The position numbers were made by a program, and so were the translations under genes. The notes below the pieces were generated by a model. That model searched no databases. It saw only the letters and a list, made by a program, of their open reading frames with translations, and was not told the origin of the DNA. Positions 1 through 40,653 of a stretch of DNA of 64,000 nt are shown here, one piece after another. Position 1 is the first letter of the stretch. Every line of letters starts with the position of its first letter. Source of the DNA: Escherichia phage ECML-123-2; sequence record OL631480; one strand, written 5' to 3'.

Positions 1-2178
1 TTAGGCCGCAAGGGCCTTCATAGTTTTAGCGATTTGAGAAACTTCATCATCACTTAAAGAGTTGCGATATCCGATGAAGTCGGAAACAATACGGAATTTC
101 TTGGTAAACTCAGCAACCATTTTATCACTGTTTTTTGAAGCATTATTTGATAATACATCAAAAAGATTAGTTACTGTCCAGATGTCATGACCGATGGTAT
201 CTTTTCCACCATTAAAATATACACCGCGCAATGAACTAACTATATTAGCGAGTCGTGTATATTCTTCAGAAACTTCATCTGTACTGAAGTACTTCATCAT
301 AAAATCTAGTTCAGGATACTTGATAATTTTATCAATATATCGTTGAGCTGAACTTGAATAACCTACGTACTTATCATAATCTACATCATCAAAAGCATCT
401 ACATATAAATCACGCAGAGTTTCAAAAATACATTGGCACTGACCGAGTTCTTTTACCTTTTTCTGCAAAAGCGGACGAATAACATAAAACTCATTAATGC
501 CAATAAGATTAGCCATACGAATCAAAATATTCATAGATGGATGACAAAGAGATGTAGTACCATCCATAGAGAAAATATCAGAACGATGCATATACGCTAC
601 ATACCCAGTAATTTCATCTGCTTCTGATGTGAGCGTAAATAATTCCTCTTTTTCCCAGCGCCCGTCTTTAATTTCAAACTTAAATGCTGTAGCAGCTTTA
701 GGACGAGGAGCTTTACTTTTAACTACCTTTGGAATATAGCTTTTAACTAAAGCTTCAATTTCTGACAAATAATGAATGTTAACTTCATCACTTTCAAACA
801 TCGCCATAATATCAGGAAGCAAATCAATCTGCGATTCTACTTCTGGATTAATAAACAGAAGGCGTTCGTTGTGATGAATATTCAAAGTGTTATTAAATTC
901 ACTATCATCTAACGCATGTGCTAATCCACGGACAATATTAACACGATTTTTAATATTATCAATAACGATATTAATTTTTGTTGCATTAATACCAAACAGA
1001 CGATAACTTGATGCAACGGCTGAAGTTTCATGACTTTGCTTAATGCGCTTCAGTCGAGGGTCAAGATTTACTTCATACACAACTCCTGCATTGCATAACT
1101 TACTATCAGGTTCAAACATGCTTTGCATCTTCTTATATGACAGATTTTTAGTCGTAAATTTGACTGAATTACTAATCATATAATCTCGAGCAGAATACCC
1201 CATCTTCATCAATTCACGATATGTATGACGGGGAGATGTGGATTCTTTAAATCGTTTTACATCTTCATTAAATGCTTTCTCACTGAGTTCTTTAACTCGT
1301 TCAATAATATTTTTACGAGTACGATCATCCAGTGAAAGAGCCTCGCGAGATGGAGCAATATCAAGTGAACCCATTGGAAACTTAATGTAATTCACTTCAT
1401 TGCGAATGCTTAGCCAGTTACGGTCTCTAATAACACCATCGATAGGATAAACAATACCGCCATAGATAGCATATAATCCACCACGATCAGGCCAGTATCT
1501 TTCTGGATTTACACCGTAATAGTCATCAAAATCCGGAAAATAATCAATTTCGCGGTCAAGACCATTAATGATAGCCAAATCTTTGAATGGTCGCATGATA
1601 TAAGAAACTTCATAAGCAAAGTTTCTAAAGTCTTTTTCTTCAACTGGAACTACGATTTCAATACCAGTTTTATCATCTGGACCCATTTCTTTTACGAATG
1701 TAGGTTTAATCTGTGGGCCATCACCATCCATGTAAGCTACATAACCACGAATTTCACCTTTATGATACGAAGTAATACTAAACGTATCAGTATAACTAAA
1801 CGGAGATTTAGAACCTAAACCAAATCCGCCAATAAAGTCATTAGATTCAGCCTTAGATGAACTGAAGTATGAATTATATAACCCAGGAGAATTATCATCA
1901 CCCTGAATATCAAAATCACTCATACCCGGACCAAAATCTCGACAAACAAATCGCGGATCTAATCGTCCTGGAACTTGTATGATAAATTTTTCAGGATTTC
2001 CATTAAGTGCATGGGCATCAATCATATTAGTAATTAATTCACGGACTACTGCACGAATCTTGTTTGTATACAAATCAGATGACAGAATTTTAAATACTTT
2101 AGGAGATGCTGTGATGCTAAATGCTTTTGATTTAGAACCATTGCCAAGAATTGTTTCTTTTTCAGTGGTGATAATCAT
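1..2178 (-). CDS. rIIA: rIIA protein (membrane-associated lysis-inhibition/exclusion protein), complete 725 aa, stop codon at window edge
   Basis: 725-aa ORF; length and sequence match recalled T4 rIIA; sits next to topoisomerase gene 39 as in T4. Confidence 0.93.
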
Positions 2179-2188
2179 AATTTCCTCA

Positions 2189-2392
2189 TTAATTCATATT
2201 ACGTTTAATAACTTCGGCAACTTCTAGTAGTTCATCTTTAGTTGCGGTATCGGATTGAATTTTATCTCTAATATCCTTAAAGCGGTTTTTAAATTCTTCG
2301 GCTTCTCCCATATCGAAAAAGCGTTGAATGATTCTATATTCTCGATGAACTGCTTTATCAAAAAGTTCTAAATTTACTTTATATGATTTCAT
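2189..2392 (-). CDS. small hypothetical protein at the rIIA.1 position
   Basis: 67-aa ORF with ATG start, SD gaggat upstream, early promoter just upstream. Confidence 0.6.
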
Positions 2393-14134: not shown

Positions 14135-14761
14135 TTAACCTCTATTCATAAAAGCATTAAAAATTTGGTCATCAATAGAAACATCTACTTTAGACTGTTT
14201 TTCTGATGGTAATTCATATCCACATATTACAATTTTGTGATCAATATCAAAATACACAGAAGCAATATGATTAATGATGTTTTCAGTAAAGTCTAAATCA
14301 ACATCAATATCTTTTTGACCACAGCCCAAAGGATAAATAATGCGAGTAATTCGATTATCTTTAACAAAGATTCCACCGACATACTCTGTGCTGCGTTTAA
14401 AGTCTACACGCCGACGAAATGAAAAATATTCAGGCTCTTTATGAGCTCGGCTCATAGGGCACAACGAATAACTAGAATAAGAGATGTCAAATCCTACGCC
14501 TTCAATATGAACTAAATTGTCATGATTAAACCAATTATAATCATATGCCAAGTCCATTAGATTGTCATATGTGAAAGGCACCGGATTAACATCATTGGTC
14601 ACAAGCATATAATTAGCAACTGCTATAATTTCATTATTTTTAACGAATACAAACCGTGATTGATGTGAATGACCTGGACCTGCGTTTTCACGATTAATGA
14701 TATAACACTGGGCACCTTTATATTTGTACGTGTCTTTACACTTGTGCATTTGATAAAGCAT
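14135..14761 (-). CDS. hypothetical protein at the 61.2 position (the T4 gene reported as anti-DarT factor AdfA, by position only)
   Basis: 208-aa ORF, second gene after 61 towards 41. Confidence 0.6.
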   Translation of the reverse strand: MLYQMHKCKDTYKYKGAQCYIINRENAGPGHSHQSRFVFVKNNEIIAVANYMLVTNDVNPVPFTYDNLMDLAYDYNWFNHDNLVHIEGVGFDISYSSYSLCPMSRAHKEPEYFSFRRRVDFKRSTEYVGGIFVKDNRITRIIYPLGCGQKDIDVDLDFTENIINHIASVYFDIDHKIVICGYELPSEKQSKVDVSIDDQIFNAFMNRG

Positions 14762-15054
14762 TATTCACCTACCACTTCAGCGATGATATTTTTATTATTA
14801 AAGTTTTTATCGCAATACAGAACATAATTATACTGCATTACACCACCAGACTTAAGCTGTTTTTGCACTTCAGCTTTCATTTCAGGACGATCACGCTCAA
14901 CGATATTCATAATATCCGCTTCAATTTGAATTTCAACTTCAGTCTGATCTGCAGTCATAGACCATTCGCACAAATCTTTGTCATAACCCGCCATAGCAGG
15001 CTGAGCAGCGCAAGAAGATAAAGCAAAAATTGCAGCAAAGATAAATTTTTTCAT
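14761..15054 (-). CDS. secreted 97-aa protein at the 61.3 position, Spackle-like by position and size
   Basis: MKKFIFAAIFALSSCAAQPAMA signal peptide; 97 aa equals recalled T4 Sp size. Confidence 0.6.
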   Translation of the reverse strand: MKKFIFAAIFALSSCAAQPAMAGYDKDLCEWSMTADQTEVEIQIEADIMNIVERDRPEMKAEVQKQLKSGGVMQYNYVLYCDKNFNNKNIIAEVVGE

Positions 15055-15114: not shown

Positions 15115-15372
15115 TTATTTTAAAACTTCTGCATAATCACATGTTACAAACTGTTTCTCTAACTTGGCGATTTTACGAAAGTATCTTTTGCATTGACGAA
15201 TCTGTCGCTTTGTAGGGCGCACAGCAAACTTAATAAATTCCACTCGACCAAATGGAGGGCTTTCTTCTGCCGGAATATCTAATACTAATTCCCACGTATC
15301 TGCAATAAGTGCTTTGAATTGAGTATTTTTCCTGACATTATACGGAGTAGGTTTAAATAAAACGATATGCAT
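15115..15372 (-). CDS. hypothetical 85-aa protein at the 61.4 position
   Basis: internal ATG at 15372 has SD gagga; longer track ORF overlaps dmd. Confidence 0.5.
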   Translation of the reverse strand: MHIVLFKPTPYNVRKNTQFKALIADTWELVLDIPAEESPPFGRVEFIKFAVRPTKRQIRQCKRYFRKIAKLEKQFVTCDYAEVLK

Positions 15373-15373
15373 A

Positions 15374-15556
15374 TTATCCTCGGCAATCCACTTCACATAC
15401 CTTCTTGTCATCAATGAAAGCTTTAACTAGTGCTTTATTAACTTCAGCATATTGAGTAGTAGCCCATTGAACGTCATCTTTCATCATTGTGATCTCTTTA
15501 GTAAACATGCTTTCATTCTTAAACCACCCCATAAAAACTACCTTTACCAATTCCAT
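15374..15556 (-). CDS. dmd: Dmd-like antitoxin (discriminator of mRNA degradation)
   Basis: 60-aa ORF MELVKVVFMGWFKNES... directly downstream of gene 41, as T4 dmd. Confidence 0.65.
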   Translation of the reverse strand: MELVKVVFMGWFKNESMFTKEITMMKDDVQWATTQYAEVNKALVKAFIDDKKVCEVDCRG

Positions 15557-36646: not shown

Positions 36647-37117
36647 TTAATCATGTGTCCACACCCCATCGATATTTGACCAAAGTCGCTGATTATCTGA
36701 TCCTCGCCACAGCTTTTTGGTCGGAAGATTTTTCTCATACTTCCCATCAATAATAACATCAACATATTTAAGCATTTCTAGTTGTTTAATATCTTCAAAC
36801 TTATATCCTGTCCACAACCAAATGCTTTTATTGGGATAAAGATTTTTTACTGTTTGAACGATGCAATGAATAACATCTCGGTTATCAGGATAGAGAGGGT
36901 CTCCTCCAGTTATAGTTAATCCTTCTATATAATCATTATTCAAACATTCAATTAATTGTTCTAGTGTTTCACCAGTGAATGGAATACCATTTCTAGCATT
37001 CCATGTTGATTTATTATAACACCCTTCACATTTATGCAAACAACCTGTAACGAAAAGAACTACCCTGCAACCAGGGCCATTCACAAAATCGCAAGGATAA
37101 AATCTATCATAATTCAT
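36647..37117 (-). CDS. nrdG: anaerobic ribonucleotide reductase activating protein NrdG (radical SAM)
   Basis: 156 aa with CPGCRVV...CLHKCEGCYN cysteine cluster. Confidence 0.92.
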   Translation of the reverse strand: MNYDRFYPCDFVNGPGCRVVLFVTGCLHKCEGCYNKSTWNARNGIPFTGETLEQLIECLNNDYIEGLTITGGDPLYPDNRDVIHCIVQTVKNLYPNKSIWLWTGYKFEDIKQLEMLKYVDVIIDGKYEKNLPTKKLWRGSDNQRLWSNIDGVWTHD

Positions 37118-38931
37118 TGATGCTTAACCCTATGCATGATTTCTTTATTTTTGCCGAGATTAAATCCGCGTTCGTTCGGATTTCCCAAATAACCACATGT
37201 TCTTCTTATTGTATTCATCTTTTTAGGATCAGTTTCTCCACAAATAGAACAAACAAATCCGTTTTCAGTAGGAGTCATTTCATGGGTACTTCCGCATGTA
37301 AAACATTTATCTACCGGCATGTTAACACCAAAATAATCTAAATGTTGTGCAGCATAATCCCATACGGCCTCAAGACCTTTCAAGTTATTTTTCATATCAG
37401 GAAGTTCAACATAAGAAATGTGACCACCTGTCGCAATGAAATGATATGGCGCTTCACGAGAAATCTTTTCAAACGGAGTAATATTTTCTTCTACTGAGAC
37501 ATGGAAACTGTTAGTGTACCAGCCTTTATCGGTAACATCTTTTACGCTTCCATATTTTTCTGTATCGAGTTTACAGAAGCGATAACAAAGGTTTTCAGCA
37601 GGAGTCGAATATAAACTAAAAGCAAATCCGGTTCTTTCAGTCCACTGTTTAAGATGAGCATTCATTTTAGTTAAAATTTCTCGTCCAATATCACGACCGA
37701 CAAGAATATTCAATTCGTGAATACCAATGTATCCTAAAGACACTGAACTTCTGCCGTTTTTAAATAACTCAATTATATCGTCATCAGGTTTAAGACGAAC
37801 CCCGAATGCACCTTCTTGATAAAGAATAGGAGCAACAGTAGCTTTAACTCCTTTTAAGGAACTAATTCTACACATCAAAGCTTCAAAACATAAATCCATT
37901 CGCTCATTGAACAATTCGATAAATTTCTGTTCATTGAACTGTGTTCCAATATAAGAATCTAATGCGATACGAGGAAGATTCAGTGTTACAACACCAAGAT
38001 TATTACGTCCATCAAGAATTTCATTACCGGTTGAATCTTTCCACGCACTCAAGAAACTGCGGCAACCCATTGGAGAAACAGGAATAGATGAGCCGGTGAT
38101 AGCTTTATTGTTCTTAGCTGAAATAATATCAGGATACATTCTTTTGCTTGCGCACTCTAGAGCAAGCTGCTTAATATCATAGTTCGGATCGTCTTTATAA
38201 AGATTAACACCTTCTTCAACAAACATAACAAGCTTAGGGAAAATAGGAGTTATTCCATCACGACCAAGACCTTTAATACGATTTTTCAGAATTGCTTTCT
38301 GAATCATTCGTTCAGTCCAGTCAGTTCCTGTACCAAATGTAATTGTTACAAAAGGTGTTTGTCCGTTTGAACTAAAGAGAGTATTTACTTCATATTCATA
38401 AGCTTGGAATGCATCGTATACATCTTTTTCTGTTTTAGATTGAGCATAATTCAACGCATCAGCGATTTGCCATTTTTCTGCATCCTCAATATGTTTTGCA
38501 TAGGTGCGTTTAACATAAGGAGAAAGTACTTTATCGACATTAGCAAATGTAGTTCCGCCATATTGGTGAGAAGCAACCTGTGCAGTAATTTGTGCCATAA
38601 TTGCAGTAGCAACACCGATTGATTTAGGAGTTTCAATCTGTGCATTACCAAGCTTAAATCCGTTCTCAAGCATTCCTTTTAAATCTACTAAACAACAATT
38701 AGTAAATGGAAGAGCAGGGGAATAATCAATATCGTGGAAATGGATAATTCCGCTTTCATGCGCTTTCATAATAAAAGACGGGACCATATTTTTGGCAATG
38801 TGTTTAGACACAATACCAGCCATAAGGTCCCGTTGAGTTGGAAAAACACGAGAATCTTTATTAGCATTCTCGTTTAAAAGGTCTTTATTAGTTTTATGAA
38901 TCAATCCTTCAATTTCTTTTTCAATTGTCAT
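37114..38931 (-). CDS. nrdD: anaerobic ribonucleoside-triphosphate reductase NrdD, uninterrupted
   Basis: 605 aa ending with glycyl-radical motif RTCGYLG and zinc ribbon CFTCGSTHEMTPTENGFVCSICG. Confidence 0.95.
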   Translation of the reverse strand: MTIEKEIEGLIHKTNKDLLNENANKDSRVFPTQRDLMAGIVSKHIAKNMVPSFIMKAHESGIIHFHDIDYSPALPFTNCCLVDLKGMLENGFKLGNAQIETPKSIGVATAIMAQITAQVASHQYGGTTFANVDKVLSPYVKRTYAKHIEDAEKWQIADALNYAQSKTEKDVYDAFQAYEYEVNTLFSSNGQTPFVTITFGTGTDWTERMIQKAILKNRIKGLGRDGITPIFPKLVMFVEEGVNLYKDDPNYDIKQLALECASKRMYPDIISAKNNKAITGSSIPVSPMGCRSFLSAWKDSTGNEILDGRNNLGVVTLNLPRIALDSYIGTQFNEQKFIELFNERMDLCFEALMCRISSLKGVKATVAPILYQEGAFGVRLKPDDDIIELFKNGRSSVSLGYIGIHELNILVGRDIGREILTKMNAHLKQWTERTGFAFSLYSTPAENLCYRFCKLDTEKYGSVKDVTDKGWYTNSFHVSVEENITPFEKISREAPYHFIATGGHISYVELPDMKNNLKGLEAVWDYAAQHLDYFGVNMPVDKCFTCGSTHEMTPTENGFVCSICGETDPKKMNTIRRTCGYLGNPNERGFNLGKNKEIMHRVKHQ

Positions 38932-39401
38932 TTTAAACTCTTTCTAAGCTGCTTCTTAAATGAAGCTATTAACTGTGTTTTGGTGTCAGATTCATTATAT
39001 TCAAATCCTCTTTGAAGCATCTCGGCCATCATTTCCTCTTTTCCTAAACGAGAAAATTCCTTTGATTTATCTCCAACAAAGTTAGGGTGAATATTATTTT
39101 GGGTGTAATCGGATTTTAAATAAGTAAGTAAATTTTCTAACCATTCAAGATAATCAACACCTTGTCCCTTTAAGCCAGAACGATTAAATTTATGCTTCAT
39201 TTGACCTTCTGTAGCATTGCAGAGATTACAAAGCAATCCACGTATCTTTCCTGCTTTTGGTCCATTTAATTCATGGTCATGGTCGAGGTGATTAGCTTGA
39301 ACATCAGGATTTAGTTCTCGTTGGCAAATTAAGCATTTACCGTTTTGTGCATTATAAAATTTTTGTTTTTCTTCTTTGTATAATTTGCCAGTCAATAACA
39401 T
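38928..39401 (-). CDS. 49: endonuclease VII gp49 (Holliday junction resolvase)
   Basis: 157 aa with CLICQRE...HLDHDHE...CNLCN zinc/HNH-like motif; same size as T4 gp49. Confidence 0.93.
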   Translation of the reverse strand: MLLTGKLYKEEKQKFYNAQNGKCLICQRELNPDVQANHLDHDHELNGPKAGKIRGLLCNLCNATEGQMKHKFNRSGLKGQGVDYLEWLENLLTYLKSDYTQNNIHPNFVGDKSKEFSRLGKEEMMAEMLQRGFEYNESDTKTQLIASFKKQLRKSLK

Positions 39402-39443
39402 AATAAAACCCTTACCTTAAATAGATAAGGGTATTTATTATTT

Positions 39444-39489
39444 TTAAGTATTGTAAAACATTCGATGCAATCGTTTATACTGTCGAATC
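39444..39489. repeat. direct repeat copy 1 (46 bp), encodes the C-terminal tail of the 58-aa ORF
   Basis: ttaagtattgtaaaacattcgatgcaatcgtttatactgtcgaatc. Confidence 0.8.
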
Positions 39490-39620
39490 ATCTTTTTAGT
39501 AGGACGAGAATAGGTTCCTACGCAAGTGGTCATATGAGGGTCCGTAGAATGTCCTTTAATAAAAAGTTTCCAAACCTTACCGCCATTTAACTTTTCAGTA
39601 TAAACCAATTCGGTTTTCAT
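39444..39620 (-). CDS. small hypothetical protein (58 aa), not in ORF track
   Basis: MKTELVYTEKLNGGKVWKLFIKGHSTDPHMTTCVGTYSRPTKKMIRQYKRLHRMFYNT; C-terminal 16 aa shared with the next gene. Confidence 0.45.
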   Translation of the reverse strand: MKTELVYTEKLNGGKVWKLFIKGHSTDPHMTTCVGTYSRPTKKMIRQYKRLHRMFYNT

Positions 39621-39656
39621 TAAAATGTCCTGTCAGAAAAAGAATTTTGAGTTTTT

Positions 39657-39702
39657 TCAAGTATTGTAAAACATTTGATGCAATCGCTTATATTGCCGAA
39701 TC
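39657..39702. repeat. direct repeat copy 2 (46 bp, about 5 mismatches), encodes the C-terminal tail of the 167-aa ORF
   Basis: tcaagtattgtaaaacatttgatgcaatcgcttatattgccgaatc; a second short repeat gtcagaaaaagaaWtttgagttt lies at 39632 and 39707. Confidence 0.8.
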
Positions 39703-40160
39703 TTTTGGTCAGAAAAAGAAATTTGAGTTTCAAGCCATTCAATGTACTCTGCGGCAGCTTGCATCAGGTTACCTTCATAGCCATCGTTATTTTCTTGCGC
39801 AGCTAATTTAGCTAATGCGTATGAAATACGTTCACCTTGAAAAGCGGCTTTAGGCTTCTGAACATCTTGGCTAGTTCTCTCTACAACTTCTTCAATTTCG
39901 CCATTTTCAACGGATTCAGTATTCCATAAACACCAGTATGTAATTGGCTTATCATAGATGTTAATAATCTTTCCGTCGGAAAGTTCAATTTCAATAATTC
40001 CAGTATCAGGTTCTATATCATCTTCGCATTCTTTTGCAAGTTCACGAACTTTAAAGACAGTACCTGCACTAAGTTCCGGCCAGTAATTACATAGCCCTGT
40101 ATCAACACGATTAATTCTAAACCACTTATCTACTGTAATCATGTCCCATCTCCATATCAA
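39657..40160 (-). CDS. hypothetical protein at the pin-locus position (Pin-like by position only)
   Basis: 167-aa ORF ending ...QKIRQYKRLHQMFYNT. Confidence 0.55.
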   Translation of the reverse strand: MIWRWDMITVDKWFRINRVDTGLCNYWPELSAGTVFKVRELAKECEDDIEPDTGIIEIELSDGKIINIYDKPITYWCLWNTESVENGEIEEVVERTSQDVQKPKAAFQGERISYALAKLAAQENNDGYEGNLMQAAAEYIEWLETQISFSDQKIRQYKRLHQMFYNT

Positions 40161-40264
40161 TTAAGTCATTTATCGTTGGTTCATTATATACTGTTTCTTC
40201 ATCAGTGTAAACCGGTTCTTCCGGCTCTGGCTCTACAGTTTCCCATCTAGCCGCCCACCAAGGT

Positions 40265-40435
40265 TTAACCCCGAAGCTTATTAAGTTCTTCATAATCAAT
40301 CCAGGATTCTAATCCTGATGGCAAATCAGATTCAATTTCCCAAAGAAGCTCTTCAATTTTCTGAAGACGATCTAGTTCTTCGGCTGGAATAGTAACCATT
40401 GACGGAGCTCGTGATACATTAATATCGTAAATCAT
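40265..40435 (-). CDS. small hypothetical protein (56 aa), possibly part of a frameshifted longer gene
   Basis: MIYDINVSRAPSMVTIPAEELDRLQKIEELLWEIESDL...; an open frame without ATG continues downstream in another frame. Confidence 0.35.
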   Translation of the reverse strand: MIYDINVSRAPSMVTIPAEELDRLQKIEELLWEIESDLPSGLESWIDYEELNKLRG

Positions 40436-40437
40436 AT

Positions 40438-40653
40438 TTACCCCAATTTAACCATACAATCGCCGTATTTCCACTTAGAAATAGACTTTTCACCATTAGA
40501 ATAATAAACTTCGAGTTTAGCACGATTATTTTTAATTTGAATAACCTTGGCTGTCATCAAAGTTCCATACCCATAATAAACTGCAACTTCATCACCTACA
40601 TATACCGCGCTTCCGCGGTAATCATGAATATAGTCAGTTCCTTCAAGCATCAT
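40438..40653 (-). CDS. hypothetical protein
   Basis: 71-aa ORF. Confidence 0.5.
   Translation of the reverse strand: MMLEGTDYIHDYRGSAVYVGDEVAVYYGYGTLMTAKVIQIKNNRAKLEVYYSNGEKSISKWKYGDCMVKLG

Follow-up and report, generated by a model that had tools for sequence, protein, structure and literature searches.

At the pin locus of Escherichia phage ECML-123-2, analysed here within a stretch of 64,000 nucleotides (nt) of its DNA (sequence record OL631480; hereafter the window), two neighbouring genes end in nearly the same amino acids. One of them is pin, which encodes a putative inhibitor of Lon protease, and the other is an open reading frame (ORF) of 58 amino acids (aa). The 58-aa protein has a predicted basic C-terminal helix, of which the shared tail makes up the distal two-thirds, and this tail is very probably the scar of short-homology rearrangements in the variable slot between pin and gene 49, rather than a two-protein module. 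The 58-aa gene is real and constrained, and it is a short paralog of TifA, which belongs to the same Pfam family (DUF7279). The similarity of the ORF to pin has already been noticed in the GenBank record of phage RB32, where ORF078c carries the note "similar to RB69ORF087c, JS98orf087clike, pin"; no paper was found in the literature that explains the similarity, or that links either the ORF or the Pin C-terminus to TifA.

The 58-aa ORF ends KMIRQYKRLHRMFYNT and the pin ORF ends QKIRQYKRLHQMFYNT, each followed by a stop codon, and 13 of the 16 tail residues are in common. The coding DNA forms a direct repeat of 46 bp (39444-39489 and 39657-39702), with a start-to-start spacing of 213 and 41 identical positions, or 43 of 51 when all 16 codons and the stop are counted; a repeat search lengthens it to 63 nt at 83% identity, the added 19 nt or so being weak. 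A second short repeat, GTCAGAAAAAGAAWTTTGAGTTT, is found at 39632-39654 and 39708-39730 with 22 of its 23 positions identical. Both repeats had been described in an earlier note on this DNA. The description of the tail repeat stands as it was given, while that of the second is right as to its existence and slightly out in its measurements, since the distal copy begins at 39708 rather than 39707 and the copies lie 76 nt apart rather than 75. A third small repeat (D3, 22 nt, 82%) and the three inverted repeats other than a terminator hairpin were treated as chance. Joining of pin to the ORF by readthrough or frameshifting was also considered and rejected, as the frame after the pin stop meets another stop within nine codons.

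That the tail repeat is an artefact of assembly or sequencing, or a chance similarity, has nothing in its favour beyond the general possibility that attaches to any short repeat, and its probability is vanishingly small. The best ungapped local self-match in 39300-39900 scores 34, whereas 100 Markov-1 shuffles average 9.7 and never exceed 14, which excludes chance; a 33-nt tail pattern, with up to three mismatches allowed, occurs at just these two sites in the 64 kb, where none is expected. Approximately 110-120 independently sequenced phage genome records share the arrangement at 94-100% identity, and this rules out the sequencing error that the earlier note had raised as an objection.

Comparison of the locus across T-even genomes, which the earlier note had proposed, revealed four forms within Tequatrovirus. 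In class A (SholemSchwarzbard, ECML-363), a 148-aa pin ending …ETQISFSDRAF is followed directly by the ORF, the TAA of the former overlapping the ATG of the latter (TAATG), and there are no repeats. Class B (T4, T2) lacks the ORF and has a 161-aa pin ending …SFSDRMIQQYKRLHQMFYNT; it equals class A minus 137 bp. Class D (ime09, SH-2, R5505, JoYop, sutha) equals class A minus 169 bp, with the 148-aa pin followed by GCGTTTTAAT joined to ACTTGAAA…; the join is at AAT within TTTTA(C)AAT and is identical in all five genomes fetched. Finally, class P (the window, RB32, fFiEco06) is class A plus 76 bp, the segment measuring 365 nt as against 289 nt, and consists of the fused pin, AAA, a second copy of the pin end (R2') and the ORF. 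Read in the old pin frame, R2' gives …KTQNSFSDRTF and a stop, with the TAATG overlap kept; as the leader of the 58-aa gene, this relic now supplies an AGGA Shine-Dalgarno sequence (39628-39631). The presence/absence variants, the junctions they share and the relic of the original pin 3' end bear out the earlier proposal of a partial duplication or recombination junction at pin. Among some 506 Tequatrovirus records, class P accounts for about 116, class A for 62-78, class B for about 250 and class D for about 67, figures that are estimates from 60 evenly spread BLAST rows and tblastn identity bands; junction-specific BLAST counts of the classes are unusable, since pieces of the two repeat copies get joined. 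IMG/VR yielded six pin loci.

The direction in which the tail moved is indicated by the relatives of these phages. In Dhakavirus VR5, a pin-like gene ends …RFSDKAF and overlaps the ORF as in class A (TAATG), while in RB69 the 137-aa pin is tail-less and the next gene, ORF087c, has the end …KKMIRQYKRFHRDFYNVY. The tail is missing from 13 clusters of 148-aa Pins and from three more distant clusters, which end …FSSKSF, …FSDRGF and …FNAKSF. Tequatroviruses of classes A and D, Mosigvirus and the more distant Pin clusters thus all have Pins that lack it. Thus, the outgroups (VR5, RB69 and the distant Pins) imply that a tail-less pin with a separate, tailed ORF is ancestral and that the tail moved from the ORF to pin. 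As far as these sequences tell, the class A-like arrangement looks ancestral, and it persists in Dhakavirus and in about 60-80 Tequatrovirus genomes. In Gaprivervirus VR7 (L006, 1109-1381) and Dhakavirus MX01 (L007, 1055-1357), the pin homolog is cut to a 57-aa C-terminal fragment, and an extra ORF of 90-100 aa lies between this fragment and the DUF7279 gene.

The codons at the fusion junction are CGA ATG ATT CAG in T4, CAA ATG ATT CGG in RB32 and CAA AAG ATT CGG in the window; the three junctions are equal in position and length and differ by point substitutions. All fused pins examined except that of phage Shinka have CAT CAA in common, where the ORFs have CAT CGA. One junction position and a common derived CAT CAA together imply a single fusion in Tequatrovirus. 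Genomes of class P and of class B (phiD1, e11/2) alike have the window-type junction, which implies that the two forms interconvert. Shinka itself (MZ502379; L022), a class B phage without the ORF, has a chimeric pin tail: the 5' half has the T4-type junction, and the 3' half is exactly the class P ORF tail, including its AAA codon, CGA codon and TAA stop. This tail appears to be the very product expected of a crossover between the two tail copies.

A second capture of the same helix is seen in a Mosigvirus-type contig (L019), in which pin is fused at ACGTTT to the last eight codons of the ORF (…YLERR/FHRDFYNVY). This fusion is independent of that in Tequatrovirus, and is known from one contig of one sequencing run. 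In another Mosigvirus-type contig (L020), the ORF has been cleanly removed. The pin–gene 49 slot is a general hot spot for insertion and deletion. In more distant T4-like phages, it holds unrelated small ORFs or nothing (L032, 1646-1930; L035, 466-672; L034), one of these ORFs being 94 aa long and another, which overlaps the pin stop, at least 69 aa.

Short homologies, with one copy left at the junction, are found at some of the breakpoints: ACGTTT at the Mosigvirus fusion and AAT within TTTTA(C)AAT at the class D deletion, with none seen at the 137-bp deletion. The heptamer CTTGAAA is present where pin ends (GGCTTGAAACTCAAA) and again immediately past the stop of the ORF or tail (ACTTGAAAATAAT). 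In T4, microhomologies of 6-10 bp are known sites of segmental amplification and deletion (bioRxiv 10.1101/2022.04.14.488369). The locus resembles these rearrangements (Srikant et al. 2022 and earlier work cited there) in the short direct homologies at some of its junctions, in the CTTGAAA sequences that flank the duplicated unit, and in that duplicated and deleted versions of a single small locus coexist, a feature also of the dmd-tifA amplifications seen in experiments. Unlike the laboratory events, the variants here are natural and fixed, and one of them has made an in-frame chimeric protein; the fusion deletion lacks a clear microhomology, and the class P junction is two to three A's off register.

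The 58-aa ORF matches Pfam PF23945 (DUF7279) along the whole profile (1-53 of 53) with an E-value of 3e-17 and 62.7 bits (cutoff 24.5), and phrog_3272 with an E-value of 3e-34. The link to TifA was made by scanning the six-frame translation of the window for an R-P-T-K-basic motif and then by Pfam, in which the window's tifA ortholog matches PF23945 (2e-20, 72.7 bits); the latter also matches phrog_2375 (4e-38). The window therefore holds two complete DUF7279 members, together with the fragment on Pin. In T4, tifA is gene 61.4, whose product inhibits ToxN, the endoribonuclease of the toxIN system (bioRxiv 10.1101/2022.04.14.488369, PMC10853763). TifA consists of a sheet of three strands and a basic C-terminal helix, which has a conserved Pro-Thr cap and binds RNA; both RNA binding and ToxN inhibition are lost in the P53A/T54A and K55A/R56A/R59A variants (PMC10853763).

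The corresponding stretch of the ORF, R39 P40 T41 K42 K43 M44 I45 R46 Q47 Y48 K49 R50, consists of a Pro-Thr cap followed by a basic cluster. In an alignment with the window's TifA ortholog, P40, T41, K42, K43 and R46 fall opposite P53, T54, K55, R56 and R59 of the TifA stretch R52 P53 T54 K55 R56 Q57 I58 R59 ... K62 R63, so that the two proteins have in common the motif R-P-T-K-[KR]-x-I-R-Q-x-K-R. They also have a similar plan of sheet and basic helix, that of the ORF being predicted: in its AlphaFold2 (AF2) model, strands span residues 2-9, 15-22 and 31-37 and a helix spans 42-56, the best model having a predicted local distance difference test (pLDDT) score of 82, although confidence is moderate, as the four other models score 52-67. 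The helix is the best-conserved part of the ORF family, with I45, R46, K49, R50, H52, R53 and F55 invariant among ten cluster representatives. Pairwise ratios of nonsynonymous to synonymous substitution rates (dN/dS) are approximately 0.10-0.35 among copies from Tequatro-, Dhaka-, Gapriver- and Mosigvirus; between genera, the tail is saturated at synonymous sites. A full-length copy is present in 352 phage records. The Pfam match, the AF2 plan, the motif alignment, the conservation of the helix and the dN/dS values thus show the ORF to be a genuine gene, paralogous to TifA but shorter. An ortholog of tifA would be expected beside dmd, under the dmd early promoter, whereas the ORF lies between pin and gene 49; the family member adjacent to dmd is a separate gene at 15115-15372, and the ORF is therefore not the tifA ortholog.

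The two paralogs differ in size (85 aa for TifA, 58 aa for the ORF) and in their neighbours, dmd in the one case and pin and gene 49 in the other. The alignment of the ORF omits segments of the N-terminal half of TifA as well as its C-terminal extension, and the body of the ORF is weakly similar to that of TifA, hhalign aligning 23 columns. The 58-aa protein is probably a small nucleic-acid-binding counter-defence protein of the TifA type; TifA homologs outside T2, T4, T6 and RB69 failed to neutralize the toxins tested (PMC10853763). A phmmer search with the ORF against 1.84 billion representatives gave just four true relatives; longer, multi-stretch matches were discarded as low-complexity noise, none of the stretches passing Pfam alone. 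Foldseek found nothing significant for the ORF model in the PDB (best E-value 0.27), and sequence searches with Pin and with the ORF gave no matches in the PDB, nor were there matches in NCBIfam.

Immediately upstream of pin, Mosigvirus-type phages have a further DUF7279 paralog of 56 aa (MQVKLLYRLLKNGKHDWY…RPTKRQLRKAKRSHRNFYREY). One contig has an intact copy (L019, 1329-1499); in two metagenomic contigs (L020 and L021, 1501-2076; the 191-aa P0045) the paralog is fused in frame to the Pin N-terminus, and in RB69 (L004, ~2141-2330, minus strand) it is a frameshifted pseudogene.

The assignment of the window's Pin as a Lon inhibitor follows from its match to Pfam PF10465 (Inhibitor_I24, PinA), which has an E-value of 2e-47 and joins residues 4-141 to positions 2-135 of the 136-position profile, and from its 96% identity to the cluster that holds the T4-type Pin. 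Inhibition of Lon by PinA is described in literature cited in PMC8835725. The Pins of T4 and of the window have the same 161-aa architecture, tail included. The tail (residues 146-161) falls outside the PinA domain, and phrog_3272, to which the ORF belongs, matches residues 147-161 with its positions 44-58; the last 16 residues of T4 PinA are a captured fragment of the neighbouring gene, outside the Pin family domain and absent from natural Pins of 136-148 aa.

What the tail does on Pin is a separate matter. The capture left behind the Pro-Thr cap and the equivalents of K55 and R56, and T4 Pin also lacks the equivalent of R59. Pin tails have also replaced invariant residues of the ORF family: every tail except that of the recombinant Shinka has Q for R53, T4 has Q for R46, and several have N for H52. 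The substitutions in the Pin tail comprise approximately five nonsynonymous and two to three synonymous changes, and omega is about 0.4, compared with about 0.1-0.2 for the ORF tail, a difference that is not statistically significant. All 14 fused pins that were read have the tail intact, and an estimated 370 records have the fused form. In the AF2 model of Pin (pLDDT 65), the tail is a low-confidence extension of the C-terminal helix, residues 143-159 scoring below 50. The tail is most likely a tolerated passenger that extends this helix, a reading that is unproven and clearly more likely than that of a functional tail.

The history of the window's form may be reconstructed as follows. In the ancestor, pin would have ended ...SFSDRAF without a tail, its stop overlapping (TAATG) the start of a small TifA-family gene whose product had a Pro-Thr-capped basic helix. 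A single 137-bp deletion would have fused codon 146 of pin in frame with the final 15 codons of the small gene, giving the 161-aa Pin of the T4/T2 type. Two routes, equally short at two steps each, could then account for class P: (i) the 137-bp deletion gives class B, and an unequal join between B and A at or near CTTGAAA gives class P; or (ii) a 213-bp tandem duplication at CTTGAAA comes first, and the first copy then undergoes the 137-bp deletion. By either route, the second short repeat would be the stranded original 3' end of pin, now serving as leader and Shine-Dalgarno sequence of the small gene. The two tail copies would remain substrates for homologous recombination, interconverting the forms of the locus.

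Several points weigh against this account, or against the view of the Pin tail that goes with it. The fusion may have come before the duplication or after it. The class P junction has five to six A's (ACTTGAAAAAACTC; six in the window and five in U115) in place of the three expected from an in-register crossover at CTTGAAA, which implies either that the join was off register or that the A-run slipped later. No class A genome with the AGGACA relic turned up by BLAST, where class P records dominated the output because fragments of the two repeat copies get joined, and IMG/VR gave no exact matches. No clear microhomology accompanies the 137-bp deletion by which the fusion would have arisen. The passenger view of the tail draws on a small number of substitutions whose pattern is short of statistical significance, the AF2 model of Pin is poor, and two independent in-frame fusions, together with 14 intact tails out of 14, could mean that the tail is useful to Pin.

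This last point is the core of a different explanation, in which the tail is a selected, shared functional module whose basic helix takes both proteins to a common partner (RNA, ribosome, Lon or a toxin), the fusion having been favoured because it gave Pin the property of the helix. The same helix was captured in frame twice independently, as 16 aa in Tequatrovirus and as 8 aa in the Mosigvirus-type contig, and the fused forms (B and P) are the majority. In addition, translation of pin and of the small gene is coupled in the ancestral form, the synteny of the two extends over four genera, a DUF7279 paralog has been fused to the Pin N-terminus in two metagenomic contigs, and the homologous helix of TifA binds RNA (PMC10853763). 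However, tail-less natural Pins are common and diverse, the Pin tail lacks the very residues (cap and K55/R56 equivalents, and in T4 also R59) whose mutation abolishes RNA binding by TifA, invariants of the ORF family (R53, R46, H52) have been replaced in it, and the Mosigvirus fusion is a single contig. A shared module is unlikely. The earlier note had suggested such a tag, for a common interaction or localization, and this part of it is not supported: the tail is native to the DUF7279/TifA-family ORF alone, most Pin lineages are without it, and the Pin copies lack the cap and the first two basic residues and have lost several of the residues that the ORF family keeps. Its recognition of a junction survives; the relationship to TifA and the direction of capture were absent from it.

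A related proposal concerns the two genes rather than the tail, namely that pin and the small TifA form a coupled counter-defence module against toxin-antitoxin systems, which we regard as improbable. Were it true, Pin would block the antitoxin-degrading Lon, while the small protein would neutralize an RNase toxin or bind RNA, and the helix on T4-type PinA would be functional, for example as a tether to RNA or the ribosome or in binding Lon; the in-frame capture of the helix on two occasions, and the DUF7279 paralogs that in different lineages lie on either side of pin or are fused to it, would then be explained. It is far less likely still that the 58-aa gene is a mobile cassette inserted beside pin, with the repeats as terminal or target-site duplications, by PeSL-like (promoter and stem-loop) shuffling or a homing-type insertion. 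The gene is polymorphic for presence and absence and is flanked by direct repeats, the slot has unrelated small ORFs in more distant T4-like phages, and PeSL-mediated shuffling is documented in T4-type phages (PMC2839356), where small non-essential ORFs with flanking repeats are likewise gained and lost within a variable region. Unlike PeSL cassettes, the repeats here are the protein-coding ends of the two genes themselves, without a unit of promoter and stem-loop: a search of 39440-39760 gave no sigma-70-like promoter, and the sole stem-loop (39408-39432) lies outside the repeats, beside one copy. There is no adjacent endonuclease gene, and in class A and three other genera the gene occupies the same place without a flanking repeat and is translationally coupled to pin. 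The scar of short-homology rearrangement remains the preferred reading of the shared tail.

The window comes from an RB32-type Tequatrovirus, and the region is its nrdD – 49 – pin – 49.1 … nrdC segment, in which every gene is on the minus strand; the best match is fFiEco06 (99.8%). Read from an upstream TTG, the pin ORF covers 39657-40160 and 167 aa; the ATG at 40142 is the counterpart of the annotated pin start in T4 and near-identical phages.

Features of the pin locus and of the tifA region in the window
Feature	Position	Strand	Remarks
nrdD	37114-38931	-	
Gene 49 (endonuclease VII)	38928-39401	-	Downstream neighbour anchoring the locus
Terminator-like hairpin	39408-39432	-	10-pair stem, then T-run; directly upstream of gene 49
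58-aa ORF, short TifA paralog	39444-39620	-	Pfam DUF7279; homologous to RB32ORF078c and RB69ORF087c
Tail copy 1	39444-39491	-	Last 15 codons and stop of the 58-aa gene (MIRQYKRLHRMFYNT, stop)
Relic of original pin 3' end	39620-39654	-	R2' (39632-39654), AGGACA, then TTTTAATG stop/start overlap
76-bp unit of form P	39655-39730	-	Missing from class A; placement at 39632-39707 equally valid
pin (PinA)	39657-40142	-	161 aa from ATG at 40142; PinA domain and captured 16-aa tail
Tail copy 2	39657-39704	-	Last 15 codons and stop of pin (KIRQYKRLHQMFYNT, stop), captured from the neighbour
Repeat copy R2	39708-39730	-	Inside pin, encodes ETQISFSD; true pin-core end just before the fusion junction
sp	14761-15054		Adjoins the tifA ortholog
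tifA (T4 gene 61.4) ortholog	15115-15372	-	85 aa; between dmd and sp; full-size DUF7279 member
dmd	15374-15556		Adjoins the tifA ortholog

The hairpin is kept in all classes of the locus, lying 3' of the ORF in the window and directly 3' of pin in T4. Late transcripts of gene 49 would start within the hairpin, thereby freeing the ribosome-binding site. Between the tail stop codon and the hairpin, which covers this site, the sequence TAATAAATA (~39433-39443, minus strand) resembles the T4 late-promoter consensus; RB69-type loci have TATAAATA in its place.

Other differences from T4 are seen on either side. The nrdD gene of the window is an uninterrupted ORF of 605 aa, while that of T4 is split by a group I intron with I-TevII, and mobC sits between nrdG and nrdD in T4 (L002, 1536-4386). 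Upstream of pin, the gene set at 40126-40653 (minus strand) is unlike that of T4 (L002, 5367-6132), making this another variable patch of the region: the window has a 49.1 homolog, a 56-aa ORF and a 71-aa ORF where T4 has 49.2 and 49.3. The RB32 counterpart of the 56-aa ORF is annotated as a toxin-antitoxin antitoxin, and the counterpart of the 71-aa ORF in the related contig L020 is recorded as Pfam DUF7205.

The process at work here is ordinary rearrangement with an informative outcome, rather than a new kind of mechanism. What is new, on the evidence of sequence comparison, is that T4 PinA appears to end in a borrowed fragment of a TifA helix and that pin has a TifA-like neighbour. The PinA of all the biochemistry on Lon inhibition is the T4 form, the last 16 residues of which are foreign to the Pin family, and natural 148-aa Pins are thus ready-made controls for mapping Lon binding. 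The locus also reveals a widely distributed, uncharacterized short TifA paralog under purifying selection, a candidate inhibitor of some other defence system. Finally, it is a natural record of the gain, loss and fusion of small genes in T-even phages, in which the ancestral form survives beside two deletions and two fusions, all independent, as well as a duplication and a recombinant, and this record matches the laboratory evolution of dmd-tifA.

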